Notes: generated by a model not told the origin, from the sequence alone. A DNA stretch of 60,079 nucleotides from Dehalococcoidales bacterium (GCA_034431095.1 DAOUDM010000011.1:1-60079); one strand, 5' to 3'; shown: positions 19,161 to 37,120, counted from the stretch's first letter. A program made the numbers and translations.

Positions 19161-19358
19161 TTACTTTCTGATTGATCTGGCTGCCTTGGCTGCCTGGCGT
19201 CTCCTGGCAGATGCCTTACGGGCGCGCCTGGTGATGGGTTTCTGGTAGCGTCCCCGGCGGCGTGCCTCAGATATAATGCCGTACTGCTGCACCTTTCGGC
19301 TGAACCGCTTGAGTAAGCTCTCAAAGCTCTCTTTATCGTCAGCCACTACATTGGCCAA
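19161..19358 (-). CDS. rpsU: 30S ribosomal protein S21
   Basis: ESFESLLKRFSRKVQQYGII...RRRGRYQKP. Confidence 0.93.
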   Translation of the reverse strand: MANVVADDKESFESLLKRFSRKVQQYGIISEARRRGRYQKPITRRARKASARRRQAAKAARSIRK

Positions 19359-19485: not shown

Positions 19486-19698
19486 CTAACTATAGACGGC
19501 AATCACCACTGCCTCTTTGGGGTTGTGCTCGTCGAAGAAGAGAACGGCTGTCTTTCGGCCGGTGGTCATCTCGGCTGCCGGCAGGTTGCGGGCGACGGCG
19601 ACGTCTTCCAGGTAGACCTTGTAGCTACCGGCAAGCTGAACGGTAGCCGTATAGTCCCCGGAGCTAAAACTTCTTAAAATCGCTTTCCTTATCTTCAT
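19486..19698 (-). CDS. Small phage protein, possible OB-fold spike/baseplate (gpV/gp5 N-terminal-like); track start 19725
   Basis: KAILRSFSSGDYTATVQL...VAVARNLP...GRKTAVLFFDEHNPKEAVVIAVY resembles the OB-fold pattern (G-x-V-x-V-x-F-x-D/G-x-P-x3-VIG). Pattern recognition only. Confidence 0.45.
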   Translation of the reverse strand: MKIRKAILRSFSSGDYTATVQLAGSYKVYLEDVAVARNLPAAEMTTGRKTAVLFFDEHNPKEAVVIAVYS

Positions 19699-19714
19699 CT
19701 CTGGTATCTCCTTT

Positions 19715-21715
19715 TTATACTGCACCTAAAAGCAGGCGCTGCTGGTACTCTCCGCGGCCGGGGTTATAGCTCATTACCAAGCCAACCAGCCTCTTCTTTT
19801 GAGCGTCAAGACCGGCACGGCTGTCGGTTATATCGACGACATCGTATAGCTGTTGTCCGCAGTTAACCGGAATCCGTATCAAGCCGTCAGCCGATGCTAT
19901 CTCCGCTTTCCTGAGGTAGGCTTCCCCGCGCGCCTGGGCTCCGGCGACGGTGTTGATGTTGTTATCCTCCAGGTGCTTGAGCCGGTCATAGACCTTATCC
20001 ACTTCATCCCAGTTAAAGCTGTCGGTGACGATGGTGCCGCTGTCGTATCCCTCGACCTGGATGCGGTTGTGCTTCAAGGCTGAGAGCTGGTAGCGTCCCT
20101 CGAGTATCGGGTGGGCGGTGGCTCCGCTCTGCGGGGTGATATAGGCATAAACTGATGCGTCTTCAGCCAGCGGATTGACCAGGTAAGCTTTATAGCCCTC
20201 GATAAATAGCACATCGGGGACGAACGACAATAGCCTGTATATCGCTGTTGTGCCACCGGTATCGGGGTTTATGGTGAAGTCGGGGTAATAGCCAGTGATG
20301 ACCGATGACTGGGAGACTACCTCCAGCTTCAAGCCAGCCCTTGCAAACACAAAGGAGAGGATGTCCTTAACGCTGGCATCGCTTGAGTCCTTGTTCCACC
20401 GCATCTGGTATCTTGCCTGCCAGTTTGCCACCAGGCTCCAGCTGTCGAGGGCGTATAGCACCAGGCTTGCCCTGCCGCCCGAGCTGGTATGCTCGTAGGC
20501 TTCCAGGGTAAAGCTCTGCCCGGGGCTTGCCTCGTTGCCCTGTGAGGTGTTATAGCCCGGGCTTAGGTCTAGCTGACAGCCGATGTCAAGGGGTGATGGT
20601 AGCGAAGAAAAGCAGCCGTCGTCGTTCCTGAGCTCTACGGTGAGCTTGCCCCCGGATGTTTTGGTCTCCTGCTTTAAGGACAGCACGTCGGCGGTTAAAT
20701 CCAGGCTCTGGCTGGCGAGCGAGGCTCGCCAGACGCCGTTTGGGGAGGACAACCAGCAGTAGTCACCGTGGTGGGCAATAGCCAGCCCATACTCCGAGGA
20801 CAGGTTGAAGGGCACCGGTTCCCGCCACAGGTTATCAACGAAGCCGGTATCGGCGACCGAGTGTGACCAGAAGGGGCGGTAGTAGGCTTCGGTGCCGGTG
20901 AACTTCTCGATGTAGAAACAGCGGCAGACATCCGGCTTGTCCAGGAAAGCCCGGTGGTATTCAAAGCTGCCCCCTGAAGGAGCCTGGGCGAACTCCTTGA
21001 GGTCTGACCAGGTGCCAGCGGCAACATCGCCACCATCGCCATAGACCAGGCTCCACAGCTTGAAATTGCCGTCCGTGTCCTGGCCGGTGACAAAAAGGTT
21101 CCAGTCGCCGTCATAGACTGCGGCAACGCCCGATAGCGCACCAGTGGTCTTATCCCAGGCTGATTTCGTCTGCCACTGGCCGCTCTCGTACTTTTTAACA
21201 TAGAGCGTTGCCTGGTCGGCGAAGAAGAGGGCGATGTCACCGTTGGGCTTGTAGGCGGCGGTGATGCCGTTGATGGCGGTAGTCGGTGAGTAATCGATAA
21301 GCTCCGGTGACCCCCAGCTTATGCCGTAGTCAGTGCTCTTTATCCACTGAATCTTTCGGTCAGACTTGATCCAGAAGATAGACACCTCCGCTCCCAGTGA
21401 GGCGGCAGCCACGATGACGGCATTGTAATGGCTGGTGTATGCCCACTGGTTGAAGTCGGACTCCGGGTTCGGGTCGGCTACCCTCTGCCGGTACAGCTTC
21501 CTTGAATCGGACGGGGGAGTTATCCTGACCTTTACCAGCGACCCGTCGCCGGGGATGGTCACAGCATGAAAGTAGTCGTCCTCCGAGCCATTATATAGCC
21601 TTGTCCAGTCGAGCCTGGTAACACCGGCAATCTTGTTGCAGGCTTCCAGTTTGACATAAGGTGTATGAGAGGCCTGCTTTTGAGCGGTCAGCAGTGTTTC
21701 CGATAGATTTCTCAT
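19715..21715 (-). CDS. Phage virion protein: N-terminal BNR/beta-propeller-like region, C-terminal baseplate hub-like region
   Basis: Asp-box-like KSTDYGISW and Trp-rich beta repeats; C-terminal A..RGEAYLRK...IPVNCGQQLYDVVDITDSRAG resembles hub (gp27/late control D-like) endings; last large gene of the structural operon. Confidence 0.55.
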   Translation of the reverse strand: MRNLSETLLTAQKQASHTPYVKLEACNKIAGVTRLDWTRLYNGSEDDYFHAVTIPGDGSLVKVRITPPSDSRKLYRQRVADPNPESDFNQWAYTSHYNAVIVAAASLGAEVSIFWIKSDRKIQWIKSTDYGISWGSPELIDYSPTTAINGITAAYKPNGDIALFFADQATLYVKKYESGQWQTKSAWDKTTGALSGVAAVYDGDWNLFVTGQDTDGNFKLWSLVYGDGGDVAAGTWSDLKEFAQAPSGGSFEYHRAFLDKPDVCRCFYIEKFTGTEAYYRPFWSHSVADTGFVDNLWREPVPFNLSSEYGLAIAHHGDYCWLSSPNGVWRASLASQSLDLTADVLSLKQETKTSGGKLTVELRNDDGCFSSLPSPLDIGCQLDLSPGYNTSQGNEASPGQSFTLEAYEHTSSGGRASLVLYALDSWSLVANWQARYQMRWNKDSSDASVKDILSFVFARAGLKLEVVSQSSVITGYYPDFTINPDTGGTTAIYRLLSFVPDVLFIEGYKAYLVNPLAEDASVYAYITPQSGATAHPILEGRYQLSALKHNRIQVEGYDSGTIVTDSFNWDEVDKVYDRLKHLEDNNINTVAGAQARGEAYLRKAEIASADGLIRIPVNCGQQLYDVVDITDSRAGLDAQKKRLVGLVMSYNPGRGEYQQRLLLGAV

Positions 21716-21972
21716 TGTTCTTTATTATCCTCACCTTGCTGGTTGGGTATGTATTTCTTGCCCCAGAAGAGGTGGCCGGCGATGTAGCCGAGGGCAAAAA
21801 CCAGCAGCAGCCAGAAGATCAGTGGCCACAGCCAGTAGCCCAGTATGGCGCCGGCGGCAACAAGGGTAATAATGCACAAGCCCTCGTATTTATGCCATAT
21901 ATCGCGCAGGATATAGGTCCAGGGTCGGCTGCCGATTGCCTGCCACAATGCACGGTAGATGTTTGCTAGCAT
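21712..21972 (-). CDS. Small two-TM membrane protein, holin-like
   Basis: Two hydrophobic segments and a charged C-terminus (GKKYIPNQQGEDNKEQ); located in the virion operon. Confidence 0.45.
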   Translation of the reverse strand: MLANIYRALWQAIGSRPWTYILRDIWHKYEGLCIITLVAAGAILGYWLWPLIFWLLLVFALGYIAGHLFWGKKYIPNQQGEDNKEQ

Positions 21973-21992
21973 CAGTTCTCCGAATATCTTGC

Positions 21993-22625
21993 TTATGGTC
22001 CGTAGTCGGTTGTTTTTGATACAACCGGATAGGCTGGCTTGTAGAGCTGATTTATTCTGGCCCGGTTTCTCCGCCCCAGCCGTTTGAGCTCCTGCCGGAA
22101 GTAGTCTAGGTTCTCCCTGCCCCAGCCGAGGAGCTCCCCGGGTGTTGCCGTGCCGCCGACATTAACCCGGTTGATGGCAAAGGCGGCCCATTCCACGGAG
22201 GCGTAGCCACAGGCGCCGGTAGCGATTAAGTCCTCGTAGATGGCGGGGATGGTCGAGCTTCCGGTATCAAGGGTATGGAGCTTGCCGTAGTAGATATAGG
22301 CGTTTGAGCCGTCGGGCACTTCTTCCCCCAGCAGGGTTACGGTATCCCCCCACAGGCTAAAGCGCTGATATATTTTGGGGAACCTGTCCACCGGGTATTC
22401 TACGGCTTGAACCATAATACGGTTGGTGATGGTAGATATATCAAGCTCTCTGGAGTCGGCGGTAGTAGCCTTGGTCGTTTTTTGCTCCAGTGGTATAGCC
22501 TCGGAGAGTTCCCTAGCGGCATGGGCGATGTGCCTGTCCAGCTCATCGTTGCTCCAGCGGTAGTTCTCCGAGTCCTCGTCGTGCAGGTCGCGCCTGACTA
22601 TGGCTCTCATCTCGGTCAGGTTCAT
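21993..22625 (-). CDS. Phage head-tail adaptor/connector protein
   Basis: MNLTEMRAIVRRDLHDED...WSNDELDRHI is typical of gp15/gp6-like adaptors; located downstream of the capsid gene. Confidence 0.7.
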   Translation of the reverse strand: MNLTEMRAIVRRDLHDEDSENYRWSNDELDRHIAHAARELSEAIPLEQKTTKATTADSRELDISTITNRIMVQAVEYPVDRFPKIYQRFSLWGDTVTLLGEEVPDGSNAYIYYGKLHTLDTGSSTIPAIYEDLIATGACGYASVEWAAFAINRVNVGGTATPGELLGWGRENLDYFRQELKRLGRRNRARINQLYKPAYPVVSKTTDYGP

Positions 22626-22628
22626 AGT

Positions 22629-22838
22629 TTATCTCCTAAGCCTGGCTAGTGCTTTTACCAGCTGTTTGAGTTTGGTAGTGGTTAGTTCGGCATCCGTTAA
22701 GCTGGAGAGTTGGGCGATGGTATTTTCCGCCTCCTCCCTCTCCAGCTCTTCATCGGAGACCTTATAGGGTATCTTTTCGGTTGCTATTAACTTGCTGTCT
22801 CTATAAGTCTCTATTGTTTGGTATCTTGTTTCCGGCAT
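22629..22838 (-). CDS. Hypothetical phage protein
   Basis: AGGAG RBS, in operon, tight spacing. Confidence 0.6.
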   Translation of the reverse strand: MPETRYQTIETYRDSKLIATEKIPYKVSDEELEREEAENTIAQLSSLTDAELTTTKLKQLVKALARLRR

Positions 22839-22848
22839 AATTGTCTCC

Positions 22849-23454
22849 TTAATCCAGCGATGAAACCCTTACCGCGCCATATCCGGCAGACCACTCACCA
22901 TCAGGGGTCGGGAACGGGTCGGCCAGGGCGGCGGGATTTTCCCCGCCTTTGTAGAGGCTGGCAGCAGTACCAGCTAGGTTAGTATTATTTGCCCCGATGG
23001 GGCTCCAGGCGGCAGAGTAATACCTTATAGCAGGTGTTCCATCGCTGATGACTGCTATAAAGTAGATGCCCTTGGTTAATGCCTGCCCGCCGCTGATTTG
23101 CAGAGTCTTTAAGCCGGTGCTGTCAACGGCAACGGTTCCGGCGTCAAGCAACAGGGTGCCGGGGTACAGGTTGGTCCCCACATTATAGATACCGAGACGG
23201 GCAATCTTGCCCGCGGCGGCGGCAGATGTAACCTCGATTACCAGATGGCTCAGGGTCATAGCCCTGGGGACCAGCATAAAGGTGCCGACCAGTCTGTTAG
23301 CCACTACGGTTACGGTTCCAAAGGCATAGATAGGGAGCAGTATCTGGTTTTTCCCTGTCCTCAGCCTATCCATCAGCTGGTAGCTATGGGCATCAAGGCT
23401 GGCTTCATGGTCAGCCAGTTGCCCCTCAATACATTCTCCGGCAAGTTTGAGCAT
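22849..23454 (-). CDS. Phage structural protein (head fibre/decoration-like beta-sandwich)
   Basis: IEVTSAAAAGKIARLGIY...YPGTLLLDAGTV...TGLKTLQI...KGIYFIAV is a pattern common in virion appendage proteins. Confidence 0.5.
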   Translation of the reverse strand: MLKLAGECIEGQLADHEASLDAHSYQLMDRLRTGKNQILLPIYAFGTVTVVANRLVGTFMLVPRAMTLSHLVIEVTSAAAAGKIARLGIYNVGTNLYPGTLLLDAGTVAVDSTGLKTLQISGGQALTKGIYFIAVISDGTPAIRYYSAAWSPIGANNTNLAGTAASLYKGGENPAALADPFPTPDGEWSAGYGAVRVSSLD

Positions 23455-23465
23455 AGTTTCACCTC

Positions 23466-23807
23466 CTAGCTAAGGCTATAGTCCGCCTCGAGGGAGAATG
23501 ATGTCCCCGAGAAAGCGGTCACCTTAAGAAATATGATAGCTCCTCTGGAGTCGACTATCAGGGCATGCTGTCCGGTGGCAGTGAATGTTCTCTTGCTACC
23601 TCCGAACCACTTCTCCTGCCTCGGGTTCCAGAAGATGACCTGGGTTTCGAGGCTAGTGAGGCCGGTGCCGGTGATGGTGATATCGAGGCGGCATTCTTTA
23701 TACCCTTCGCTGTCGATGGCTCCCGAGGTGTCCGCCGGGTCGGATGTGTCAACAGTGGTGATACCGCTCCGGTGGAGCTTGGGTTGTGTGACGTAAACTT
23801 CAGCCAT
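23466..23807 (-). CDS. Hypothetical phage protein (possible capsid decoration protein)
   Basis: Beta-rich 113-aa protein immediately after the capsid gene; AAGGAG RBS. Confidence 0.5.
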   Translation of the reverse strand: MAEVYVTQPKLHRSGITTVDTSDPADTSGAIDSEGYKECRLDITITGTGLTSLETQVIFWNPRQEKWFGGSKRTFTATGQHALIVDSRGAIIFLKVTAFSGTSFSLEADYSLS

Positions 23808-23859
23808 AACTTGTCTCCTTTGGGTGGGGAGGGGTTTATCCCCTCCCCACGGATTTAGT

Positions 23860-24780
23860 TTAGTCCTGGGCGCCTATCAGCGCCGCCGCTTTTACAGAGG
23901 AAAACAGTGCCAGTGAGCAGTACCACTTGACCCGGGTACGCGAGGCATCCTTGTTCTCCAGCGGGCCAATCGGCTCTACCTGGAGGAAGCCGGGGCTGGT
24001 CAAGCCGCAAAGGGCGCCTTCGCCGAGCTGGATGACGTAGATGGTGGAGCAGTCGCCGCCGGTGGTGGCTGATTCCAGGCTGTCGGTGACGATGTGGGTG
24101 TCGAGTATCCAGTCGTTGACGCCGATGGGGATGCCGTCCCATAGCTGGATGAAGTTGCCCCAGCTATCGCGGTCGGCGTCCATCATGCCGCCGGCGGCTC
24201 TGACCAGGGTGTTGATCTTACGCCGCGAGCGGCGGCTCATCAGTAGCATATCGGGCTTGCCGCCTTTTACAGCGTCGATGAGCTCATCCAGCTTATCCAG
24301 CGTCAGGGTGGCGCCGGTGGCGCCCATAGCGATAACCTGGTCGCTGGCGCTGGTGGTGTCGATGAGCAGCCTCAACCCGTCGAACTGCTTTGAGTTGGTT
24401 GCCGAGTCGCCGTAGATGAAGATTTCGTCGAACTTTTGCTTGAGCGCCTTGGCTTTGAGCTCTATGATTGCCGACTCGAGGTCCTGGACGTTGCTTCGGG
24501 TTGCCTTAAGGAAGTTGTCGACATCGGCATCGCCGCCCATTATTTTCAGGTTGGCTGTCTTTTGTTCGAAGGTCGGGGTGGACTCATCCCAGGTATCACC
24601 GACATCGTAGAAGTCGATGCTGGGCAGGGCATTCTCCTGATTGTAGGTCAGGCCGTTGCCCACGATTTCGATAAATGGTAGTTGCTGCAGGATAGGGGAG
24701 TCCTTAACGATGGTCTCCACTACCCCCTGGAGCAGTATATCGTTGGATAATTTTGATGCTTCGGCTAGGGTTAAAGCCAT
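23860..24780 (-). CDS. Major capsid protein (HK97-fold type)
   Basis: 306 aa; LPFIEIVGNGLTYNQENALP, GGDADVDNFL, FIYGDS...FDGL, TLDKLDELID, WDGIPI, RVKWYCSLAL; follows scaffold and portal. Confidence 0.88.
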   Translation of the reverse strand: MALTLAEASKLSNDILLQGVVETIVKDSPILQQLPFIEIVGNGLTYNQENALPSIDFYDVGDTWDESTPTFEQKTANLKIMGGDADVDNFLKATRSNVQDLESAIIELKAKALKQKFDEIFIYGDSATNSKQFDGLRLLIDTTSASDQVIAMGATGATLTLDKLDELIDAVKGGKPDMLLMSRRSRRKINTLVRAAGGMMDADRDSWGNFIQLWDGIPIGVNDWILDTHIVTDSLESATTGGDCSTIYVIQLGEGALCGLTSPGFLQVEPIGPLENKDASRTRVKWYCSLALFSSVKAAALIGAQD

Positions 24781-25286
24781 TATTTGTTACCTCCTATGGC
24801 GTATTGAATTTTTTCCCTGGCAGATAGAGCTGAGAAGTCGGGTGGGGTTCTCACCGGGGCGCCGGCCGGGATTCTGGTTTTGATAGCCTCAGCCTCCAGT
24901 CCCTGCCTCACCTGGCTGACCAGGTTCTTGGCTCTGGCCAGCGAGTCGTCGATTGACTCGATGGTGTCGCCGGTGATAAGTTCGGGGGGTACTTCCGGAT
25001 TGGTCTCAATCACTATGCTCTTGTAGCTCGATACCGCCTTGCTTAGCTGTTCGCCGAGCTGGTCGAGGTCTTCGCTGGACTGGGTGACGGACTGCTCCAG
25101 GGAAGCGATTTCGCTGTCTTTGTCGGCTACAGCCTGCTCCAGCTTCAAGATTTGCTGGTTCCTTGCCTCCAGCTCCCGGTCTTTCTCGGTGACCAGTTGG
25201 GTAAGCTCGGTAACTCTGGCTTCAAGCTGCCTCAGCTTCTCCTCCAAGGGATTTTGCTCTTCCTGTTTTAGCTCTTCATCAGTCAA
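24780..25286 (-). CDS. Capsid scaffolding protein
   Basis: Acidic coiled coil with C-terminal PPDFSALSAREKIQYA tail; stop overlaps the capsid start codon (TAATG). Confidence 0.75.
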   Translation of the reverse strand: MTDEELKQEEQNPLEEKLRQLEARVTELTQLVTEKDRELEARNQQILKLEQAVADKDSEIASLEQSVTQSSEDLDQLGEQLSKAVSSYKSIVIETNPEVPPELITGDTIESIDDSLARAKNLVSQVRQGLEAEAIKTRIPAGAPVRTPPDFSALSAREKIQYAIGGNK

Positions 25287-25309
25287 ATTAAATAACCCCC
25301 TTGTGATTG

Positions 25310-26695
25310 TTACAAAGCGCCTTCCACCTTGGGCTTCAAAGCTCTCTCTCGCCCGCCGCCGGCGGTAGACTTGGCACTAAGCTCTTTATTCATCTTGAGG
25401 ATGGCCTGCCTCTCCTCAAGCCACTGCTTGAACTCCATCTCCGGGTCGTTGACCCCGACCTCGTACATAGCCCGGCGCCGGGAGTGGATGCCGTTCTGAA
25501 CCAGGGTCTGCTCATTGGTGACCAGACGGCTCAGGTCTCTGGGCAACACCGGGCTCCAGACCACATCCAAACGGTGGTTGCCGAAGTCCTGGTTCTGGTA
25601 TTTCTCGATAAGCCGGAGGATGAGCTGGCCTCTCTTTTTATAGGCGGTGGTCCTGATGAGTCTCTTGCGCCACACCTTCTGCAATAGCGGTTGTAGCTCA
25701 ATCTCAAGGGCTACCCCGGAAAGGTCCCTGGAGGTGCCGCCGAAGGCAGCTCGGGGCGCCTCGGCGACATCATGCAGGGTTCGGTAAAGGAGGTCGATGT
25801 AGCTGATGTGGAGGCCGACGCCACCGCCCTGGAGCAGGTCAAGCAGGTAGGCTTTAGCATCGTCGGGTATGTTCCACACTGCCCCCGGCTTGACGGCGAT
25901 ATCCTCGGATTCCTCCACGTTCTCCAGTACGGCGATGGGGTTGCCCGATAGCTCCAGGATTCTTGATAGCTGGCTCATCGCCCGGTTCAGCTCCCGCTGT
26001 GGCTCGACGAGCTGTGCCAGATCGGATATGCCCCAGAACTTCTTCGGCTCTCTCAGGTTGGGGTAGATAACGAACGGGATAAAGCCGTAGGGGTTGGCTT
26101 TCTTCTCTACCTGGTTATCGTCCAGCCAGAGCTCGAAGTGCCCGTCTGTCCATATCTCGACGATGCTGGCTGTCTTGCCCCTGGCTTTTACCCCGTACTG
26201 GATTTCAGCCTCCTCGGCGGTCAGGTTGTACTTTGAGGCTACCCGCCATATTCGGGAGGTGTCGTCTCCCAGCCACCAGGCATAGATACCCTGGATATCG
26301 GGGGCGGTAACCCGGACGGCCTTCCTTTCCGTGTCCCAGGTAACCTTGAAGCAGGCGTCGCCGAGGATGGCGCAGTCAATCTCGGTCTCGAAGGTTAGCT
26401 GTTCCAGGTTGTTGTCCTGCTCCACCTGCCGCAGGGCGGCCTCGGCTCTCTTGGCTCTGGCTCTGGCTTCGTCCGAATCCTCCACCGCCTCGACGGTCGA
26501 GTGAACGCCGGATGACAGATAGGAAGTGACCTTGTCGATAACCACCTTGGCGTAGTTGAAGGTCAGGTGTTTCTCGCCTCGGGTGGCGCGACCTGGCCAC
26601 TGCTGGCCGCGGTAGAAATCGAGCAGCTCCCGGTACCGTTTGAGCCTGTCAAAGTCCTGCTGGTTCAACTGCATTGGGGTGAAATCATTGTTCAT
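25310..26695 (-). CDS. Phage portal protein (SPP1 gp6-like)
   Basis: 461 aa; LDFYRGQQW, TFNYAKVVIDK, AILGDACFKV, NPYGFIPFVIYPN...WGISDL, SGVALEIELQPL. Confidence 0.9.
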   Translation of the reverse strand: MNNDFTPMQLNQQDFDRLKRYRELLDFYRGQQWPGRATRGEKHLTFNYAKVVIDKVTSYLSSGVHSTVEAVEDSDEARARAKRAEAALRQVEQDNNLEQLTFETEIDCAILGDACFKVTWDTERKAVRVTAPDIQGIYAWWLGDDTSRIWRVASKYNLTAEEAEIQYGVKARGKTASIVEIWTDGHFELWLDDNQVEKKANPYGFIPFVIYPNLREPKKFWGISDLAQLVEPQRELNRAMSQLSRILELSGNPIAVLENVEESEDIAVKPGAVWNIPDDAKAYLLDLLQGGGVGLHISYIDLLYRTLHDVAEAPRAAFGGTSRDLSGVALEIELQPLLQKVWRKRLIRTTAYKKRGQLILRLIEKYQNQDFGNHRLDVVWSPVLPRDLSRLVTNEQTLVQNGIHSRRRAMYEVGVNDPEMEFKQWLEERQAILKMNKELSAKSTAGGGRERALKPKVEGAL

Positions 26696-26709
26696 CTTTT
26701 ATCCTTTGT

Positions 26710-27015
26710 TTAAAAATCTTGGTCTTCCTGATGAGTGTTCCGGTAGTTCTTCAGCACCCTCTGGACGGTGCGCTGGCTGATGCTGAATGCTATCGCCAGC
26801 TCTTTTACTCCTCTGCCCTCTTTCTGGAACTGGTGCAGTATCTGCCGGTCACGGCGGCTCTTGAGCAGGTGCTGCTTGCCTCTGGGCACGTCGTAGATGC
26901 ATCCGGGGAAGGGACAATTGAGACAGGATTCAGCCAGTTCACAGCCTTCATCTTTGTAATGACAATACTCCGGTGGTAAATCTATCTCAGTGTAAAACGT
27001 CGGCTCCAGTTCCAT
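26710..27015 (-). CDS. Cys-cluster + HTH DNA-binding protein (candidate late-gene regulator); track start 27024
   Basis: C-x6-C-x5-C-x2-C-x4-C followed by GVKELAIAFSISQRTVQRVL HTH; first gene of the virion operon. Confidence 0.7.
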   Translation of the reverse strand: MELEPTFYTEIDLPPEYCHYKDEGCELAESCLNCPFPGCIYDVPRGKQHLLKSRRDRQILHQFQKEGRGVKELAIAFSISQRTVQRVLKNYRNTHQEDQDF

Positions 27016-27049
27016 AACACTCAATCCAAAAAGCTCACTGAGTGGTAAA

Positions 27050-27078
27050 ATAATAGCACATATGTTCTATTCGGTCAA
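27050..27078 (-). promoter_or_regulatory. Promoter of the virion operon with a LexA-like (GAAC-N4-GTTC) box between -35 and -10
   Basis: Minus strand TTGACC-17 bp-TATTAT with extended TGn; AGAACATATGTGCT (27068-27055) lies inside it. Confidence 0.7.
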
Positions 27079-27148
27079 CACTTTTTTGTCGTCTGGGAGG
27101 CTAACCATTCTGTCTTATTTGCGTTATAGTTAGTAGGCTCGTTGATGC

Positions 27149-27177
27149 TTGACAAAGGAGGATATTGGTGCTATTAT
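27149..27177 (+). promoter_or_regulatory. sigma70 promoter for the HTH + surface protein operon
   Basis: TTGACA (27149)-17 bp-TATTAT (27172), extended -10 TGc. Confidence 0.7.
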
Positions 27178-27212
27178 TGTTTTGACAAAGTAATATTTAC
27201 TTTTCTAGTATT

Positions 27213-27416
27213 ATGGTACCTTTAGATAACTACTATAATGTGATGGAAGCCGGTCATCGTCTCAAGATTCATCCGGAAACGGTGAAACGCCTGTGCCGGC
27301 AGAAAGACCTGCCGGCGATAAAGTTGCATAATACCTGGTTGATTGACAAGGATGACCTTGACAACTTCGCCGGGACCTACGTCCCGAGGCGCGGTGCTAA
27401 AAGGAAACTGATATAG
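27213..27416 (+). CDS. Excisionase/MerR-like winged HTH (HTH_17) protein
   Basis: YYNVMEAGHRLKIHPETVKRLCRQKDLPAIKLHNTWLIDKDDL. Confidence 0.85.
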   Translation: MVPLDNYYNVMEAGHRLKIHPETVKRLCRQKDLPAIKLHNTWLIDKDDLDNFAGTYVPRRGAKRKLI

Positions 27417-27437
27417 AAAACTTATAAGGGAGGAAAC

Positions 27438-29852
27438 ATGGTGAAAGATAAAAAGGTTTTTCGAATACTGGCAGTGACTTTGACTTTGGCGTTACTGCTG
27501 ATGGCGATACCGGCGTCGCTGGTCCTGGCGGCGGCAAGTCTTAATCTTACCCCGGACGAAGGCGAGGTTGGTGATGACGTTCAAGTTAATGGCACGGGTT
27601 TTAATACAGGCCTGAGCCTCATTCTTTATTTCTCCAGCCAGCCGGCTGAGGTGGGCGATGATATCAATACCGATGTTACCATCTATAAGCAGGTAAATAC
27701 AGCTGGTACGCCTGTGAGTCCCAATTTTGTTAAAAACTTTCTGGTGCCGGAAGTTCTTAGCCAGGGCCCTGGTACCGATGAAGATGTTCACGACGGCAGG
27801 TATTATGTATATGTTACCAATGATATTTCAGAGTATATACTGGCCAAGGCTTACTTTACCGTCGTTGGCTTTGGTACTATTGAGTTAAGCGATGATGAAG
27901 GCACGGTTGGTACCGAGATTGACATCACCGGTGGTGGCTTTGCTGCAGATGAAGATCTTTCCGTGGAGTTTGGCGGCGATGAAGTGGATATTGAATCTGG
28001 TGATGAGGTAACCGATGAAGACGGTGAATTTATCCTATCCATTATTATCCCGGATGCCATTTTTGGTGACCATACTATAGCTGTTATCGGTGGAGAGTCT
28101 CTGGCAGAGGTTAGCGATACATTTACTGTGATGTCAGATATAACAGTTAATCCTGTGCAAGGGCTGCCGGGCGATGAGCTGACATTATATGGCACCGGTT
28201 TTGATAAAAGGAATGGTGTGGATTTCTATTTTGGTGGTACCCCGATTACTGTTGAATGGATTGTTGATGCTGCCCGCAGTAAGACCAACAACGACGGTTA
28301 TTTTGCCGTAAAGATTACCGTACCCGATGTTGATGTCGGTGCCTATACCATTCTGGCCGAGGATGAGGATGACGATGATATCTCAGCACAGGTAACCTTC
28401 ACCGTGACAGAGCCATCGTTAAACCCGGTTATCGTCGTTGACCCCACCAGTGCCAATGTCGACGACGAGGTTGAGGTTAGCGGGACGGAGTTCGCTCCCG
28501 GCGATACCGTGACCATCTACTTTGACGATGAAGTTGTCGACACGACTACCACCTTGACTGACGGCAGCTTCACCGGTTCCTTTGATATTCCCGAGAGTGT
28601 CAATGGCAGTCATACCATAAAGGCTGAGGATACTGATGGTGGGGTGGCGACAGCAACGATAACCGTAGAGCCGAAGATAGCCTTTGACATTGAAGAAGGC
28701 CCGGGCGGTACCGAGGTAACGGTAACCGGCACCGGCTTCGGCTACCGGAGCGATATTGAGACCATTGAATTTGATAGTACCGATGTTGATATAGAGAGCG
28801 GTGATGATAGGTCTGGTACGGATGGCAGTTTTGAGTTCAGCTTCATAGTGCCGGCGGTTGGAGCCGGCAGTTATGATGTAACGGTCGAGGATGAAGACGG
28901 CAACTCCGCCGAGGCCGAGTTCACCGTGGTGGCCGCCGCGGCCAGCATTACTCCAACCAGCGGAGTGGGCGGCACTGAAATTACAGTTACCGGTGTTAAC
29001 TTTATCGCCGGTGCTGAAGTTACCATTTCTTATGATGGTGTTGACATTACTACTGCTACTGCCGGTAGTGATGGAACAGTATCAGCTACATTCGATGCTC
29101 CTGCCGGCGCCGGTGGGGTACACAATGTAACCATAAGTGATGGAATAAACGATCCCGATGCTGAATTTACAGTTACTGCTGAAGCTTCTATCAATCCAGT
29201 TAGCGGTAATGTAGGCAGTGCGATTACGGTGAGTGGTAATGGCTTTGGCGCCAGCAAGCCGATAACCATCACCTATGATGGCAGTGTCGTTACCCCGATG
29301 GCGACAATCGTAACTCTGGTTGACGGCAGCTTCAGCGGCAGTTTTATCGCTCCTGTCAGCACTGGCGGTAGCCACGTTATAACCGTCAGCGATGGCGTCA
29401 ACCCTCCTAAGCAGTTTACCTTTACCATGGAGACAACCAAACCGCCGACGCCCCAGCAACTTCCGCTTGGGACGGATAAGCCCAAGCAGCCGATTACCTT
29501 TGATTGGAGCGATGTCACCGATGCCAGTATGCCGGTAACATATAGTCTCCAGGTTGCTACCGATGCCAGCTACGGCAATATAGTGATTGATAAGATGGGG
29601 CTTGCCGGGTCTGAATACACCCTTCTCGAAGAGGAGGAGCTTGAGCCTGTTGGTAAGGATAGCCCTTACTACTGGAGAATAAGCTCAACAGATGCTGCCA
29701 GCAATAGCAGTGACTGGGGTCCCAGCGCCACCTTCTATATTGGTGGCGGTTGGCCCGGCTGGCTGATGTGGCTCTGGATTGGGCTGGGGGCACTGACGCT
29801 CGGTATATTCTTCTTCTGGCTGGGTAGGAGAATAGCCTTTAGCTCCTACTAA
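27438..29852 (+). CDS. Large acidic cell-surface protein: signal peptide, ~7 IPT/TIG Ig-like repeats, FN3-like module, C-terminal membrane anchor
   Basis: Seven P-x2-G-x2-G-x-(E/D)-V-x-V-x-G-x-GF repeats, FDWSDV...YYWRI module, and a Trp-rich TM segment ending GRRIAFSSY. Confidence 0.85.
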   Translation: MVKDKKVFRILAVTLTLALLLMAIPASLVLAAASLNLTPDEGEVGDDVQVNGTGFNTGLSLILYFSSQPAEVGDDINTDVTIYKQVNTAGTPVSPNFVKNFLVPEVLSQGPGTDEDVHDGRYYVYVTNDISEYILAKAYFTVVGFGTIELSDDEGTVGTEIDITGGGFAADEDLSVEFGGDEVDIESGDEVTDEDGEFILSIIIPDAIFGDHTIAVIGGESLAEVSDTFTVMSDITVNPVQGLPGDELTLYGTGFDKRNGVDFYFGGTPITVEWIVDAARSKTNNDGYFAVKITVPDVDVGAYTILAEDEDDDDISAQVTFTVTEPSLNPVIVVDPTSANVDDEVEVSGTEFAPGDTVTIYFDDEVVDTTTTLTDGSFTGSFDIPESVNGSHTIKAEDTDGGVATATITVEPKIAFDIEEGPGGTEVTVTGTGFGYRSDIETIEFDSTDVDIESGDDRSGTDGSFEFSFIVPAVGAGSYDVTVEDEDGNSAEAEFTVVAAAASITPTSGVGGTEITVTGVNFIAGAEVTISYDGVDITTATAGSDGTVSATFDAPAGAGGVHNVTISDGINDPDAEFTVTAEASINPVSGNVGSAITVSGNGFGASKPITITYDGSVVTPMATIVTLVDGSFSGSFIAPVSTGGSHVITVSDGVNPPKQFTFTMETTKPPTPQQLPLGTDKPKQPITFDWSDVTDASMPVTYSLQVATDASYGNIVIDKMGLAGSEYTLLEEEELEPVGKDSPYYWRISSTDAASNSSDWGPSATFYIGGGWPGWLMWLWIGLGALTLGIFFFWLGRRIAFSSY

Positions 29853-29878
29853 TATATCTTGATAATACAGGAAATAGC

Positions 29879-29915
29879 ATCCCCCCTCCCTGATTTACGG
29901 GAGGGGGATTTTTTT
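29879..29915 (+). terminator. Rho-independent terminator after the surface protein gene
   Basis: ATCCCCCCTCCC...GGGAGGGGGAT followed by a T run. Confidence 0.75.
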
Positions 29916-30031
29916 AATGAAAGAGGGAGCTGAAAGCCCCCTCTTAGACTTTTCCCCCTGCCTTGCTATGCAGAATACTATTGGACAAATGTGGTATAAT
30001 TAACATAACGAAATATTAGCTTGAAGATGCT

Positions 30032-31138
30032 GTGAAAGAAGATGAGAATATATTCCCATCATTACTAGAAAAGGTACTTGTAGACATTTGGGGAGGTGGT
30101 GGAGACCGTCTTAGCACACTTCATCTTAAAAAAACACGCACAGCGACTTCTCATATTCGAAGTATCTATAGGCATAAGGGTGAGCACGGTACTATCCAAC
30201 CTTCCAGAATAAATTACCAATTTAAGCAAAATAGGGCTGGATATTTAGCTGCCTTTGGGGAAAGGCATGCTTATCTATCCTACTTACATTTAAATAAAGT
30301 ACAAAGCAAAAATCCTGAAGCAATACCAAAGCCTCGTGGCAAGAGAAACGAATTGGTAGTTACTTCTTTGGGAGCTGGAGCTTGTGTTGAGTTATTTGGC
30401 ATATGTCTTTTCTATTTATCAGGTGCAGGTCGTCAATCGCTTCTTTTAAAATTAAACTCTGTAGAAAAAGAGCGTGAATGGAATTCAAGCCAACATATTG
30501 TATTTACTAGAGTCCTAAAAGATATTTTTCCGAAAGTAGATGTTGATAAAATTGATGTTGCAGTAGATTTGAAAGAGGATGCAATACCTGCATTCTCTAA
30601 TCAATATGATAGGCTCACCAACACCGATATATTGCTTATTTACAACGTTTTAAATGAAATCCCATCAACTTATGCGAATAAAGTATGGAGAAATATTAAA
30701 TTTTTAATAGACATATTCCAGAGGCCAGTTCTTATTCTTCTTATGGAACCTTCTGCTTCGCGAGCGGAACCTCGTATATATCGAATAAAGGAACAACTCA
30801 TTCAACAAACTGATTTGATTGAAGAAAACAAGGAAGAAATATTTTATTTTAATGAAGCACCTGTTTGCATCAAGAAGAGCAATTCTGAAGATGATTTAAA
30901 CTATCGGTTATTTGGACCTAGCACTGATAGCTCGCAGCCTGATTTCGAGACGTCAATTTCGAGAGCACACATGTCTTCTGTGAAGAAACCAGATTCACCA
31001 ATAACCATGGAACAAGTGGCTTTGCAGCTTTCGAAGTTGGGTATTAAGAGAGGGAGAAAAGGAGCAAGTGCGTTTCGGCGCCCTAGAGTAGGGCCACAAT
31101 ATACGTTTGTCTCTGTTAGTGATGATTGGAAATTGTAA
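30032..31138 (+). CDS. Putative class I SAM-dependent methyltransferase, Rsm22-like; AT-rich insert (GTG start)
   Basis: VTSLGAGACVE (motif I-like), DILLIYNVLNEI and LILLMEPS resemble the Rsm22 DLVIASxVLNEL / LVxIEPG motifs; visibly AT-richer than the flanks. Confidence 0.55.
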   Translation: MKEDENIFPSLLEKVLVDIWGGGGDRLSTLHLKKTRTATSHIRSIYRHKGEHGTIQPSRINYQFKQNRAGYLAAFGERHAYLSYLHLNKVQSKNPEAIPKPRGKRNELVVTSLGAGACVELFGICLFYLSGAGRQSLLLKLNSVEKEREWNSSQHIVFTRVLKDIFPKVDVDKIDVAVDLKEDAIPAFSNQYDRLTNTDILLIYNVLNEIPSTYANKVWRNIKFLIDIFQRPVLILLMEPSASRAEPRIYRIKEQLIQQTDLIEENKEEIFYFNEAPVCIKKSNSEDDLNYRLFGPSTDSSQPDFETSISRAHMSSVKKPDSPITMEQVALQLSKLGIKRGRKGASAFRRPRVGPQYTFVSVSDDWKL

Positions 31139-31237
31139 TGAAAAGGTGGTAGTATAACATTTAACTACACCTTGTAATATATACAATTGCTGCTTGACTT
31201 GGTTTAGCGCTATTGCTTTTTGCACAATCTTACCCCC

Positions 31238-32671
31238 TCACTCCCTAACACTCCCCACCGCTGTTTTCCTCTCGTATTGGTTAGCTGCTTCAACCAGCAG
31301 TGCCAGGCTCATCAGGAAGTCGTCGTGCCCCTGTGACGGGTCGACATAAAAATTCATTGTCTGGTTGGGGCGGTACTGGTTTCTGGCTTTTTCCATCTGT
31401 AACCAGAACTCTCGGTATTCCGCTGAGCCGTCGCCGGCATACACCTTCAGCCGGCCCGAGTTAATAGCCGCCAGCAGGTTGAAGCCCAGCTTTGACTTGG
31501 AACCGGTGGTGAAGGTGAACGGGGAGACTTTTGAACCCAGTGACTTCCTAAGGAAGGAGCTTACCGGCTGGCCGACGCCGGTGGCATCGACCACTACCCG
31601 TCGGCAGTGCCATACATTACCCAGGATGTCGATAAGCTGATGGTAGAGCTCGGAGTGCTTTTTACCGGTCCACCAGTAGTGCTCGACGATATTTACCCTG
31701 GGCTGTTTCTGAACTTCGTCGCTGACCGAGAAGTCCAGTTCGCCGATGGTAACCACGGTCGAGTCCTTGAGCGGCTTTAGAGCTCTCAGGGTAGCTCCCT
31801 CCGCCTCCTCTGCCTCACCGGCAAGGTCGATGCCGGCGATATAGGTTTTGCCCGGCTCGGGCTGGTGTTTTCTCGGGTGCTTCCCCTGTAGCTGTGCCCT
31901 CTGTTGATGGCTTAAGAAGCCACCGCCGCCATGTATGGGTAACAGGCAGTACTGGGTCAGGAAAAGTGGGTGGTTCTCCCCCAAACGCTCACGCTCCGCC
32001 TGGACATAGGCTAGATAATCGGGGTTGTATTTGGCTACTTCCTGCCAGTCGAATCGGAAGTGGCGTTTGGTGCCGTCTTTCCTCTCCAGTTCCAGGTTGG
32101 TCTGCTTTATCTCCTCGAGCAGGGTCAGGTCGTCCCAGGTGGTGCCGTAGTGAATGGTGGTGACATTGGTTGTCGCCCCCATAGGTTTGAACTCCTTGGT
32201 GTATTTCGCCTTGCTTACATCTTGGGACTCGTCTATCTCCAGGAGTATGTGAGCCGTGTTACCAACGACGTTAGCCGATTCGTCGGCGGAAAGGAATATA
32301 GCCCTGGCATTATATAGCCTGATGATATAGCCCATCTCGGATGTCCAGACGCCAGCAAAACCGGCATCGTTCAGCCTGTCCTTGAGCCGCGTCATAGAGA
32401 TGACCGTCTGCGGTTTGAAGGTGGGGGCACACTTAATCAGGTTCTGCGGTGTCGCCGTCATGAAGAGGGTCACAAGCAACAGCTCAAGCTGGGCGGATAG
32501 CTCGTTCTTGCCTCCCTGGCGGGCGATCTCGACGGAGAAGGTAATGCCCTTCCTGCCGAAAACGCTGTCCAGTATAGCCAGTGCCACCTCTCTCTGGTAG
32601 GGGCGGAGTCTATTTATCAATGAAGCTTCCGATGCCGATGCCCAGCGGTAGGGCAACATCCCGGAGGACAT
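31238..32671 (-). CDS. Terminase large subunit
   Basis: LRPYQ, Walker A ARQGGKNE, Walker B LEIDESQ, GTT coupling motif, nuclease acidic residues GIDLAG, VDATGVG and HDDFLMS all present. Exact start uncertain. Confidence 0.92.
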   Translation of the reverse strand: MSSGMLPYRWASASEASLINRLRPYQREVALAILDSVFGRKGITFSVEIARQGGKNELSAQLELLLVTLFMTATPQNLIKCAPTFKPQTVISMTRLKDRLNDAGFAGVWTSEMGYIIRLYNARAIFLSADESANVVGNTAHILLEIDESQDVSKAKYTKEFKPMGATTNVTTIHYGTTWDDLTLLEEIKQTNLELERKDGTKRHFRFDWQEVAKYNPDYLAYVQAERERLGENHPLFLTQYCLLPIHGGGGFLSHQQRAQLQGKHPRKHQPEPGKTYIAGIDLAGEAEEAEGATLRALKPLKDSTVVTIGELDFSVSDEVQKQPRVNIVEHYWWTGKKHSELYHQLIDILGNVWHCRRVVVDATGVGQPVSSFLRKSLGSKVSPFTFTTGSKSKLGFNLLAAINSGRLKVYAGDGSAEYREFWLQMEKARNQYRPNQTMNFYVDPSQGHDDFLMSLALLVEAANQYERKTAVGSVRE

Positions 32672-32975
32672 TGGTGATCGCCTCCTTCAGGCTCCTCTTG
32701 TCCTCCTTGCTGATGTTGTATCTGGTTCTGACCAGCCGGGCCAGAGTATTGGTTGCCTGTATAATGAGCTTTATATTTTGCGGGTCGTGGGCAACGACGG
32801 ACTTAATCTTGGTTCTAAGCAGGGCGATCTCATCGTCGATACCCTCGACGCGGGTGGCTAGCTCGAAATCGAGCTGTTCCGCCTCATCGAGCACCCTGGA
32901 GTAGAAGCCGTGCTTTCTAGCGTTTTGATTGCCTCTGGGGGCGCCTCTTTTTATTTTCTCTGTATTCTCCGGCAT
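32610..32975 (-). CDS. Terminase small subunit
   Basis: KRGAPRGNQNARKHGFYS N-terminal TerS motif; AAAGGAG RBS before ATG 32975; directly upstream of terL. Confidence 0.8.
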   Translation of the reverse strand: MPENTEKIKRGAPRGNQNARKHGFYSRVLDEAEQLDFELATRVEGIDDEIALLRTKIKSVVAHDPQNIKLIIQATNTLARLVRTRYNISKEDKRSLKEAITNVLRDVALPLGIGIGSFIDK

Positions 32976-33078
32976 ATAGTCTGTCTCCTTTGTCAAGGAG
33001 CTCGGCAGTGGTCAGGACAATAATGTGAGCCGCCAACTCCCATCTCTGGTTTTCTATGGCTAATCTCAGCAGTTTCAT
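32917..33078 (-). CDS. Unannotated 53-aa protein overlapping terS (MKLLRLAIENQRWELAAHIIVLTTAELLDKGDRLYAGEYRENKKRRPQRQSKR)
   Basis: Strong SD AAGGAGGAGG before ATG 33078; first ORF after the LexA-box promoter; below the 60-aa track cut-off. Confidence 0.6.
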   Translation of the reverse strand: MKLLRLAIENQRWELAAHIIVLTTAELLDKGDRLYAGEYRENKKRRPQRQSKR

Positions 33079-33106
33079 CGCCTCCTCCTTGACTAGATGT
33101 AGAGTT

Positions 33107-33135
33107 ATAATAGCACAAATGTTCTACTATTACTA
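33107..33135 (-). promoter_or_regulatory. Promoter of the terminase operon with a LexA-like box
   Basis: AGAACATTTGTGCT (33125-33112) overlaps extended -10 TGcTATTAT; 19 of 20 bp (ATAATAGCACA-x-ATGTTCTA) identical to 27050-27069. Confidence 0.7.
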
Positions 33136-34729: not shown

Positions 34730-35175
34730 TAAACACTATTGTCACTTTCTGTCCTCCTTCTATTTGAGCGGCTGGTCCTCTATATTAGCCATTTTTTAAG
34801 CTCTTGATTCCATTATGCCATTCTCTTTTGAATAATATAGCCATGGCACCTGGCTGTCAATATAGTTCTACACTGTGGTTGACTATATGTCAATAGAGGT
34901 TAATAAACACTGGGGTTGACAAAAGGGTTAATAGGGGCTGATAAAAGGGTTGAAAATGAATACGTAAAGGAAAGGTAGTTTTCTACTCGAGAAACTATCT
35001 GACGGTTTGTTAGGTAACATTTCGATGAAATGTTATTTCCATTTTGCCCTTTTTAGGAAAGCAATTTAATTAATAATCCCTGTATTTATTATGATAAGAT
35101 AACTTCAAATCTATTCATCGTATTTTTAATTGTGTCACCGGTGTAAAAAACATACAAAGAAAAGGCAATTAAAAT

Positions 35176-37057: not shown

Positions 37058-37120
37058 TCACGTTCCTCTATCATATACGATTCCTCATTTTACCTATCAA
37101 TTTTGGGTGATCTTACTCAA

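Follow-up and report, generated by a model that had tools for sequence, protein, structure and literature searches.

A 60,079-nt stretch of a Dehalococcoidales genome (GCA_034431095.1, DAOUDM010000011.1:1-60079), which as a whole is called the window below, carries a block of phage genes at positions 19486-33130, between the core genes rpsU-yqeY and Zn-ribbon-rnhA-rnpB. We read this locus, with a probability of roughly 60%, as encoding a vertically inherited, domesticated, short-tailed, DNA-packaging particle that resembles gene transfer agents (GTAs) and belongs to the host, not to a virus. The narrower claim, namely that the block is a domesticated and functional particle-forming module of some kind, can be made with high confidence. 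The argument is built on the identities of the genes, the modelled fold of the tail hub protein, the fixed chromosomal position, purifying selection, co-divergence with the host, the conservation of an operator and its overlap with the promoters, and the absence of genes for self-propagation.

Gene content of the block

The packaging and head gene set proposed by the initial annotation is real. Scans with Pfam, PHROGs and NCBIfam assign to the block a small and a large terminase (TerS and TerL), a portal, a scaffold, an HK97-type capsid protein, an SU10-type adaptor and a 666-aa hub protein, with family matches for TerS, TerL, portal and capsid, and an adaptor match just under the cut-off. The features of the block and its immediate flanks are as follows; all genes of the block lie on the minus strand unless marked (ORF, open reading frame; HTH, helix-turn-helix).

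18689-19138, yqeY, flank of the block
19161-19358, rpsU, flank of the block
19486..19725, minus strand, g79, conserved protein of 70-79 aa at the end of the virion operon, likely start 19698
19715..21715, minus strand, tail hub protein, 666 aa, with a modelled N-terminal beta-propeller (~1-305) and C-terminal gp27/Mu gp44/VgrG-type hub (~310-666)
21712..21972, minus strand, holin-like membrane protein with two transmembrane segments, 86 aa, from hydrophobic stretches in the translation
21993..22625, minus strand, head-tail adaptor, 210 aa, SU10_adaptor 1.2e-5, 26.3 bits against a cut-off of 27
22629..23807, minus strand, variable cassette between capsid and adaptor, encoding proteins of 113, 201 and 69 aa
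23824..23850, GC-rich hairpin directly 3' of the capsid stop codon, with 9 G-C among its 11 pairs (terminator-like scan)
23860..24780, minus strand, HK97-fold major capsid protein without delta domain, 306 aa, phrog_212 1.7e-71; Pfam GP7, Phage_capsid and SU10_MCP
24780..25286, minus strand, coiled-coil scaffolding protein of 168 aa, a call made on position and composition
25310..26695, minus strand, portal, 461 aa, SPP1_portal 4.2e-25; phrog_64 1.4e-37
26710..27024, minus strand, Mor-like late activator with Cys-rich N-terminus, 104 aa, Pfam Mor 7.1e-7; PHROG late transcriptional activator 1.6e-8
27025..27212, divergent regulatory region with P(mor), the operator at 27050-27069 and plus-strand promoters at 27149-27211
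27213..27416, plus strand, excisionase/MerR-type HTH protein, 67 aa, TIGR01764 6.4e-7; PHROG DNA-binding/excisionase families
27438..29852, plus strand, surface protein, 804 aa, TIG 8.8e-24, with signal peptide, IPT/TIG repeats and C-terminal membrane anchor, both termini as judged from the translation
30032..31138, plus strand, window-specific gene in the variable TerL-TIG gap, 368 aa, GC 0.36
31238..32671, minus strand, TerL, 477 aa, Terminase_6C 2.5e-5; PHROG TerL 7.8e-7
32610..32996, minus strand, TerS-like protein, 128 aa, PHROG TerS families 2.6e-6 to 2e-3; NCBIfam TerS_not_xtmA 5.7e-6
32917..33078, minus strand, small upstream ORF, 53 aa (MKLLRLAIENQRWELAAH...), with a strong ribosome-binding site, between operator and TerS and overlapping the TerS start in another frame
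33107..33126, minus strand, operator of the terminase operon with its extended -10, TAGAACATTTGTGC TATTAT, identical to the box at 27050
33202-33897, Zn-ribbon gene (CT398-type), flank of the block
33919-34317, rnhA, flank of the block
34379-34730, rnpB (Rfam, 322 bits)

Corresponding loci of other genomes were seen as about 10 kb on either side of the capsid gene, and the source genome as 60 kb. The TerL motifs are invariant in 13 species, namely the Walker-A-like RQGGKN, LLEIDE, the nuclease Asp in IAGIDLAG, VVDATG and GHDDF; these unchanged catalytic residues, together with a full terminase, argue that filling with DNA matters. TerS is 49-79% identical in related loci, and its residues 15-53 align to profile positions 83-120 of 233 of TerS_not_xtmA. 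Since only the central part of the longer phage TerS families is matched, the protein is probably shortened at its N-terminus. The 53-aa ORF that overlaps its start is kept in about 12 related loci and absent from others; it could encode a separate small protein or an N-terminal part of TerS that is joined by frameshifting.

As for the head, the portal is 64-83% identical in related loci, while the family matches of the scaffold are to coiled coils only and its assignment draws on its place between portal and capsid, kept in every locus. The hairpin that follows the capsid gene could act as an attenuator, so that the tail genes beyond it would be transcribed less than the head genes. In the cassette that separates capsid and adaptor, the genes are exchangeable between species and belong to several families (67 loci): the 201-aa protein of the window matches a "tail protein" PHROG (phrog_21562, 2.3e-11), and other species encode here a 154-180-aa protein, LamG-type proteins (Laminin_G_3 matches in loci L001 and L002) and a 70-95-aa protein, with nothing in eight loci. 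The adaptor is 54-77% identical in related loci, and the SU10_adaptor family also matches its orthologues in L002 and L181. At the position of the 86-aa membrane protein, 41 of 62 loci have a gap large enough for a gene and the other 21 have none; this holin-like gene, which had been counted as part of the set, falls outside the conserved core. Finally, g79 occurs in all loci that reach it (48-88% identity) and has no Pfam or PHROG family match and no sequence match in the PDB; searches of the PDB with the hub, g79, TerL, adaptor and capsid sequences returned nothing useful.

The 666-aa protein likewise has no match in Pfam, PHROGs, NCBIfam or PDB sequences, and tblastn against 50,697 isolate phages found none either; among 1.84 billion cluster representatives, a profile search retrieved 1533 clusters at E <= 0.001, mostly of 650-690 aa. 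With a diverse alignment (29-46% identity), AlphaFold2 gave a model with a predicted local distance difference test (pLDDT) score of 93.6 and a predicted TM-score of 0.90, whereas an alignment of close homologues alone yielded a pLDDT of 53 and generic propeller matches only. Comparison of the confident model with the PDB by Foldseek retrieved proteins of central hubs or spike bases, among them those of baseplates of extracellular contractile injection systems (7aef_q, 3e-16), with TM-scores, normalised to the target, of 0.71 for Mu gp44 (1wru) and 0.68 for the 43-kDa tail protein of MuSo2 (3cdd); phage P1, phage 80alpha (6v8i), Listeria prophage gp18 (3gs9), T4 gp27 (1k28) and VgrG1 were matched as well. 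The hub superpositions cover about 350 columns at a root-mean-square deviation of 4-5 Å, and the N-terminal part is matched by beta-propeller lectins and sialidases. In the model, the protein is an N-terminal beta-propeller fused to a gp27-type hub, as would be expected of a distal tail tip whose head binds glycans or surfaces. The C-terminal 350 or so residues superpose on the hubs of gp27, Mu gp44, the Tal N-terminus and VgrG with target-normalised TM-scores of 0.6-0.73; unlike these, the hub described here is joined to a propeller, is accompanied by no tube, tape measure or distal tail protein, and has no match at the sequence level. The whole tail complement of the conserved core is the adaptor, the propeller-hub protein and g79, and the early description of the block as "hub-like" and "very short-tailed" finds support in this model. 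A podovirus-like short tail of the SU10, T7 or P22 type would comprise an adaptor plus nozzle and needle proteins; here the adaptor match is just under the cut-off, the distal protein is modelled as a gp27-type hub in place of a nozzle, and no needle was recognised.

None of the ORFs between 19486 and 33125 matches a protease, a tail tube, a tape measure, a replication protein or an integrase in Pfam, PHROGs or NCBIfam, and no att-like direct repeat was found to flank the block. The corresponding statement of the initial annotation holds inside the block, with the qualification that a tyrosine recombinase lies 4 kb away (37121-37942), in a separate islet described below; the further statement that there is no repressor has to be set beside the regulators that the block does encode, that is, the Mor-like activator and the excisionase-family HTH protein. 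The structural genes have a GC content of 0.55-0.58, equal to that of the flanks, as expected from the host-like base composition noted at the outset. The uniformity claimed for the block extends to these genes and not to the 368-aa gene at 30032-31138. Neither Pfam, PHROGs, NCBIfam nor PADLOC yields a match for this gene, none of the related loci carries it, and it is probably recently acquired cargo, outside the conserved system.

The placement of the block between core genes is equally clear, with rpsU and yqeY on one side and the Zn-ribbon gene, rnhA and rnpB on the other. The rest of the window is ordinary core chromosome: upstream are secD, cca, priA, rplS, trmD, mraZ/rsmH, ftsA/ftsZ and nrdR, as well as the genes for ribonucleotide reductase, an NYN-domain protein and a radical-SAM protein, and yqeY and rpsU; downstream are the CT398-type zinc-ribbon gene, rnhA, rnpB, ctpA, pheST, proS and ispG, then rseP, dxr, cdsA, pyrH, rpsB and purL. 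Two low-GC patches lie among these core genes, one at 44316-44903 (plus strand; a retropepsin-like aspartyl protease with a SEC-C motif, GC 0.37) and a second at 47347-48474 (minus strand; a pentapeptide-repeat protein with an ion-channel domain).

Chromosomal position, selection and relatives

Relatives of the capsid protein number 5574 in a collection of 5.8 billion proteins, and the best 120 capsid clusters, at 90% identity clustering, are 85-100% identical with lengths of 305-306 aa. When one genome per GTDB species is taken, relatives are found in 380 genomes; the best 80 of these, each from a different assembly, are 79-94% identical and come from metagenome-assembled genomes of the Dehalococcoidales type, and their labels are nearly all Dehalococcoidales, Dehalococcoidaceae, Dehalococcoidia or Chloroflexi. 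In every locus of sufficient length, tblastn with the proteins of the window recovers the same order: rnhA and the Zn-ribbon gene, then TerS and TerL, a first gap, the TIG surface protein and the HTH protein, then Mor, portal, scaffold and capsid, a second gap, adaptor, hub and g79, a third gap, and finally rpsU, yqeY and the genes for the radical-SAM protein, the NYN protein and ribonucleotide reductase. Two contigs of 525 kb and 442 kb show the whole arrangement including the flanks as in the window. The Zn-ribbon gene adjoins TerS in 10 of 13 loci, and rpsU/yqeY follow g79 in 23 loci, among them all four (4/4) with at least 6 kb of room. Presence at the same locus, which had been predicted for a GTA, is borne out: gene order and flanks are identical wherever contigs reach, and the distribution is broad, neither patchy nor strain-specific.

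Within this fixed order the spacing varies between species, from 36 to 5158 nt between TerL and TIG, from 81 to 3192 nt between capsid and adaptor (67 loci) and from 128 to 5417 nt between g79 and rpsU, and in 11 of 32 loci no TerL is found over the 7-10 kb that precede mor. Such drift in contiguity can be tolerated by a host-owned gene set and could not be by a virus that packages its own genome. Gaps and flanks carry cargo in individual loci: a Bro-N protein and a DndB-family gene in L002 (14401-15216, 18284-19390), and a FAD-type oxidoreductase of about 470 aa in the g79-rpsU gap of L032 and L059. The edges of the module appear, from these comparisons, to be insertion hot spots.

These data bear on the idea that the block is part of a complete and functional temperate phage, with its remaining modules beyond the window. 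Only 60 kb of the genome were seen, and TerL already stands apart from the virion operon, both of which would suit such a phage. A packaged phage genome must, however, be contiguous, and core genes flank the block directly on both sides; the synteny holds across deep divergence, integrase, att site and replication genes are missing, and 21 of 62 loci have not even the small membrane protein. IMG/VR, in addition, holds no long viral contig of this kind: it contains 210 close capsid relatives, the best 80 of which are all on contigs of at most 12.7 kb, and these short contigs are best read as fragments of the chromosomal locus and not as viral genomes. We regard a complete phage as the least credible of the explanations considered.

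Selection on the module was estimated from ratios of nonsynonymous to synonymous rates (dN/dS; Nei-Gojobori, pairs with dS < 1.5), most pairs being near saturation with a median pS of about 0.7. The values are 0.096 for the capsid, 0.12 for the portal, 0.17 for TerL, 0.19 for both hub and TerS, 0.24 for the adaptor, 0.27 for the scaffold and 0.08 for the HTH gene, as compared with 0.16 for yqeY, 0.17 for the radical-SAM gene, 0.23 for rnhA and 0.32 for the Zn-ribbon gene. At 0.10-0.27, dN/dS in the module is well below 1, as had been predicted for a GTA, and about level with or below that of the flanking core genes. Furthermore, identity to the proteins of the window, taken over one set of loci, is 79-94% for the capsid, against 51-72% for yqeY, 53-70% for the radical-SAM protein (one value of 40% being a match over 8% of the protein at a contig end), 46-79% for rpsU and 70-83% for ribonucleotide reductase.

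Co-divergence with the host was assessed with Mantel correlations of pairwise dN. Capsid, portal, hub and adaptor give r = 0.55-0.74 with yqeY and 0.70-0.94 with the radical-SAM gene (p <= 0.002), and the host-host control, yqeY with the radical-SAM gene, gives r = 0.83; pairs that involve TerL are weaker (r = 0.34-0.51, p = 0.01-0.07). Congruence with the host, another prediction made for a GTA, is seen in these distances (r = 0.55-0.94), the host genes being linked core genes.

A cryptic prophage remnant in neutral decay would account for the loss of tail, lysis, replication and integration functions, for the stops and frameshifts of some loci and for the cargo at three gaps. Against it stand the dN/dS of 0.10-0.27 with synonymous sites near saturation, a capsid better conserved than rpsU, yqeY and the radical-SAM protein, the occurrence of the capsid gene in 380 species, and the conservation of catalytic motifs and promoters. 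Neutral decay was rejected on the selection data, and we hold it to be scarcely credible.

Among isolate phages, the nearest share at most 40% capsid identity and are ordinary siphoviruses with protease, tube and tape measure. Distant relatives of several kinds were found as well. A second clade in other Dehalococcoidia (L170, L173, L176, L181, L182) has a 307-aa capsid that is 57-64% identical and keeps the order TIG-Mor-portal-scaffold-capsid-adaptor-hub, at a different chromosomal site and with extra genes after the hub. The IMG/VR contig L179 (10.9 kb) encodes a TerL and a TerS that are 63% and 64% identical and a 393-aa integrase; its portal directly follows TerL, and integrase, methyltransferase and HTH gene lie between the end of the hub and TerS, an arrangement that makes it a candidate for a still-mobile cousin of the module. 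Finally, in the viral contigs L165, L178 and L180, of 37-50 kb, a phrog_212 capsid is encoded ahead of a larger protein that contains the hub domain; two of the three also have an adaptor-like gene before that protein. These distant relatives indicate that the module descends from a real phage lineage that was captured at least once in Dehalococcoidia. The uncultivated phages share with it the capsid family, the adaptor, the C-terminal hub domain and their order, and represent a plausible ancestral lineage; they differ in having 37-50 kb with many further genes, or an integrase, and in not being flanked by conserved core genes, and identity to L165, L178 and L180 is only 27-33%, against 63-64% for TerL and TerS of L179.

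The integrase nearest to the block belongs to an islet of 3.3 kb with a GC content of 0.44-0.48:

34704-38034, integrative islet, inserted in the 3' end of rnpB, with rnpB as att site
34704-34729 and 38009-38034, perfect 26-nt direct repeat of the rnpB 3' end, bounding the islet
35176 and 36567, two 76-nt repeats in the islet
35789-36343, HD-domain gene in the islet
37121-37942, tyrosine recombinase, 273 aa, in the islet

Its genes are absent from all related loci. The integrase was considered as a part of the module and rejected, since the att repeats bracket 34704-38034 only and the islet is missing from other loci; the sole integrase nearby, a matching one having been named beforehand as a sign of a normal prophage, belongs to this independent element.

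A related explanation is a satellite-like head module which, in the manner of the capsid-forming phage-inducible chromosomal islands (cf-PICIs), would produce capsids of its own and take its tails from a helper phage, or which has kept its mobility in some other way. Head and packaging genes without tube or tape measure are what such a satellite would show, and the integrase-bearing L179 is a relative that may have kept this mobility. A cf-PICI likewise combines TerS, TerL, portal, capsid and connector genes on a small island and has no tail tube; cf-PICIs, however, have integrase, att site and replication genes and a patchy, mobile distribution, and none of these was found here. The block has no integrase, att site or replication/primase gene, the nearby integrase being that of the rnpB islet, which excludes it; it keeps a fixed, syntenic position between core genes in dozens of species, diverges together with the host, and brings its own adaptor and hub. 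We consider the satellite explanation very unlikely.

Promoters, operator and regulators

A 20-nt sequence, TAGAACAWWTGTGCTATTAT, occurs at 27050-27069 and 33107-33126, upstream of each of the two minus-strand operons, and nowhere else in the window. The scan returned three matches against 0.01 expected by chance, the third being the opposite-strand reading of the 33107 site; the near-identical boxes first proposed for the promoters of both operons are indeed present. Within it, the 16-nt box TAGAACATATGTGCTA is found in both promoters in nearly all species and corresponds to the B. subtilis-type LexA consensus, GAACN4GTTC (PMC4234289), with one fixed change. Its core, GAAC-N4-GTGC, is one mismatch away from the B. 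subtilis-type GAAC-N4-GTTC. GAACATATGTGC and GAACATTTGTGC, which lie in the spacer and extended -10, likewise differ by one mismatch each from the GAAC-N4-GTTC palindrome, so that a box of the Gram-positive LexA type, one mismatch from the palindrome, overlaps each promoter.

The conservation of this box extends over the related loci: TAGAAC-N4-GTGCTA precedes mor in 54 of 63 and TerS in 17 of 19. When AGAAC-N4-GT[G/T]CT was searched on either strand in 1.2 Mb of loci plus the window, 71 of 77 matches fell at the two promoters; five of the remaining six are opposite-strand readings of promoter sites, and the last is in L082, where mor was undetected. The box also precedes mor in the distant clade with a capsid of about 60% identity (L170, L173, L176). 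According to the promoter scan, P(mor) is TTGACC-17 nt-TATTAT with TG (27078-27050, minus strand), and the operator fills its spacer. The fixed G of the box gives the TG of the extended -10 (TGCTATTAT), which would account for an imperfection of the palindrome that nearly all species share.

The Mor-like gene heads the virion operon and is present in all loci that reach it. On the other strand, the gene for the 67-aa HTH protein, which is 66-81% identical in related loci, heads the HTH-TIG transcription unit. An alignment of 30 intergenic regions revealed a second conserved palindrome, ATTGCTTT-N4-AAAGCAAT, at the HTH promoter. A conserved TTGTCAAG / GACAAAA pair was also seen in the HTH-mor intergenic region (window 27095-27212, 30 loci). 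Palindrome and pair are probably an operator for the 67-aa HTH protein or for another regulator. Repression by LexA through promoter occlusion would be the most economical reading of the box at the two operons. The LexA of D. ethenogenes is reported to bind the Gram-positive box (Fernández de Henestrosa and colleagues, J Bacteriol 2002).

A proposed host-owned particle and its meaning

From these elements a mode of action can be proposed. Two sigma-70 promoters would drive the module, one serving the 53-aa ORF, TerS and TerL, and the other serving Mor, portal, scaffold, capsid, the variable cassette, adaptor, hub and g79. The LexA-type operator in spacer and extended -10 would keep each of them off by repressor occlusion until DNA damage leads to RecA-stimulated cleavage of LexA, whereupon both would open and the Mor-like protein may boost late expression. 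Proheads would assemble from portal, scaffold and capsid protein without a protease, and the probably shortened TerS would, with TerL, fill them from the chromosome by headful packaging. The adaptor and a trimer of the beta-propeller-hub protein would then close the portal and form a stubby tail, whose propeller, together with the variable LamG-type proteins, may bind the recipient surface. Finally, particles carrying host DNA would be released from a wall-less cell; cells of the Dehalococcoides type lack peptidoglycan, so that release without a lysin is conceivable.

The TIG surface protein may belong to this picture. It is found at the same position in 35 of 42 loci and is only 29-50% identical between species, which marks it as fast-evolving; in some loci it is duplicated in the TerL-TIG gap. 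A fixed position combined with fast change resembles the pattern of a receptor or recognition protein. One could imagine a DNA exchange restricted to kin, in which an SOS-triggered particle meets the TIG protein as recipient receptor, the latter co-diversifying with the propeller and LamG-type proteins, and also a directional transfer akin to lateral transduction. Packaging that begins at a pac site within the locus and continues into the adjoining chromosome would move a defined core region, in contrast to the random packaging of a GTA, and is conceivable because the packaging genes are fixed beside core genes. We view this idea as doubtful.

A domesticated particle with another function has to be weighed more seriously, be it a PBSX-like killer, a device for SOS-triggered altruistic lysis or DNA release, or one that interferes with infecting phages by packaging their DNA or competing for it. 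The same data on conservation, synteny and operator demonstrate selection for a function and do not say for which; SOS-type control and random packaging also fit PBSX, and killing or recognition that is specific to strains would be in keeping with the variable surface-binding cassette and the rapid evolution of the TIG protein. PBSX and the PBSX-like defective prophages of Bacillus are, like the present block, chromosomally fixed and conserved, and PBSX is DNA-damage-inducible and packages host DNA. PBSX kills sensitive cells and is equipped with a contractile tail, lysis genes and an Xre repressor, whereas here there are only an adaptor and a hub, there is no lysin, and no sequence relationship exists beyond general phage folds. 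No toxin, lysin or sheath-type killing device was recognised, and the invariant catalytic residues of TerL argue for filling with DNA. Overall we judge another function unlikely, and prefer the GTA-like particle.

With the GTAs (RcGTA, BaGTA, VSH-1, Dd1, VTA) the module shares a phage-derived cluster of structural and packaging genes without replication or integration genes, a fixed locus, vertical inheritance, purifying selection, putative regulatory input of a host type and tolerance of a split locus. In genomic terms it agrees with the class, as it lacks replication, integration and lysogeny genes and is held in place under purifying selection; regulatory control by the host may be reflected in the LexA-consensus-like operator that overlaps both promoters, LexA being the candidate binder by motif. 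Of the properties that define a GTA, the packaging of essentially random host DNA, in pieces too small for the encoding genes, has only indirect hints here, given by the match of TerS to just the central part of phage TerS families and by a locus that is not kept contiguous; delivery to recipient cells and recombination there would be the other. The module differs in its independent origin, in its phylum and in the surface-protein operon embedded in it. It does not belong to the RcGTA family, which is defined by a homologous cluster of 15-17 genes: the capsid is phrog_212/SU10-like and the hub fold is shared only generically, and of the protease, tube, tape measure, distal tail protein and megatron of RcGTA, none is found here. 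Control would also differ, being exerted by CtrA/GafA or quorum sensing in GTAs as compared with the LexA-type operator of the present locus.

Several points weigh against a GTA-like particle. The system is known here from its genes alone, and we infer from them the particles, the packaged DNA, its transfer and the SOS induction. Hubs of the gp27 type normally sit on a tail tube; as no tube gene was found, the architecture must be an unusual one or some parts must have their genes elsewhere. The related loci show no conserved lysis gene, and tail or lysis genes may lie beyond the 60 kb of the window. The naming of LexA rests on motif similarity and on the reported binding of the Gram-positive box by the LexA of D. 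ethenogenes, and the module's own HTH protein or Mor could be the binder instead; neither the window nor the related loci contain SOS genes with which the operator could be compared. The flanking "host" genes are linked to the module, and the congruence covers the region and not the whole genome. The related loci were chosen by capsid similarity, which introduces a bias towards intact capsids. Finally, a stop or frameshift is present in TerL, portal, adaptor or hub in about 10 of 56 loci (examples are L002, L009, L022, L033, L039, L044, L046, L066, L074 and L076). Several of these are long-read assemblies, and some of the disruptions may be errors; others, TGG-to-TAG changes at conserved tryptophans, look real. 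The element may accordingly be dispensable in some lineages, unless assembly errors are the cause, and it is intact in most. Occasional loss is known for other domesticated phage elements.

A full-text search of the literature on GTAs and prophages in Dehalococcoidia, Dehalococcoides, Dehalococcoidales and Chloroflexota found no description of this locus. Transcripts of the "prophage" category from Chloroflexi have been reported to rise in anoxic subseafloor clay (PMC7688785). What would be new is an independent domestication in a phylum new to such systems, with a minimal tail of adaptor plus hub, control of the LexA type and an embedded surface-protein operon. The minimal architecture, a propeller-hub on an adaptor with no tube, is of structural interest, and the capsid protein is more conserved than the product of the adjoining ribosomal protein gene, rpsU.

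Dehalococcoidia are abundant, slow-growing bacteria of the subsurface and of sediments, with small genomes, and include the organohalide respirers used in bioremediation; gene exchange among them is poorly understood. If our reading is correct, hundreds of species possess a host-owned DNA-packaging particle, an addition to the few GTA lineages known so far. Such a particle would give these communities a concrete and testable path along which genes could flow and DNA be released under stress, and the repeated calling of short Dehalococcoidales fragments as "viral" by virus-prediction pipelines would find its explanation.

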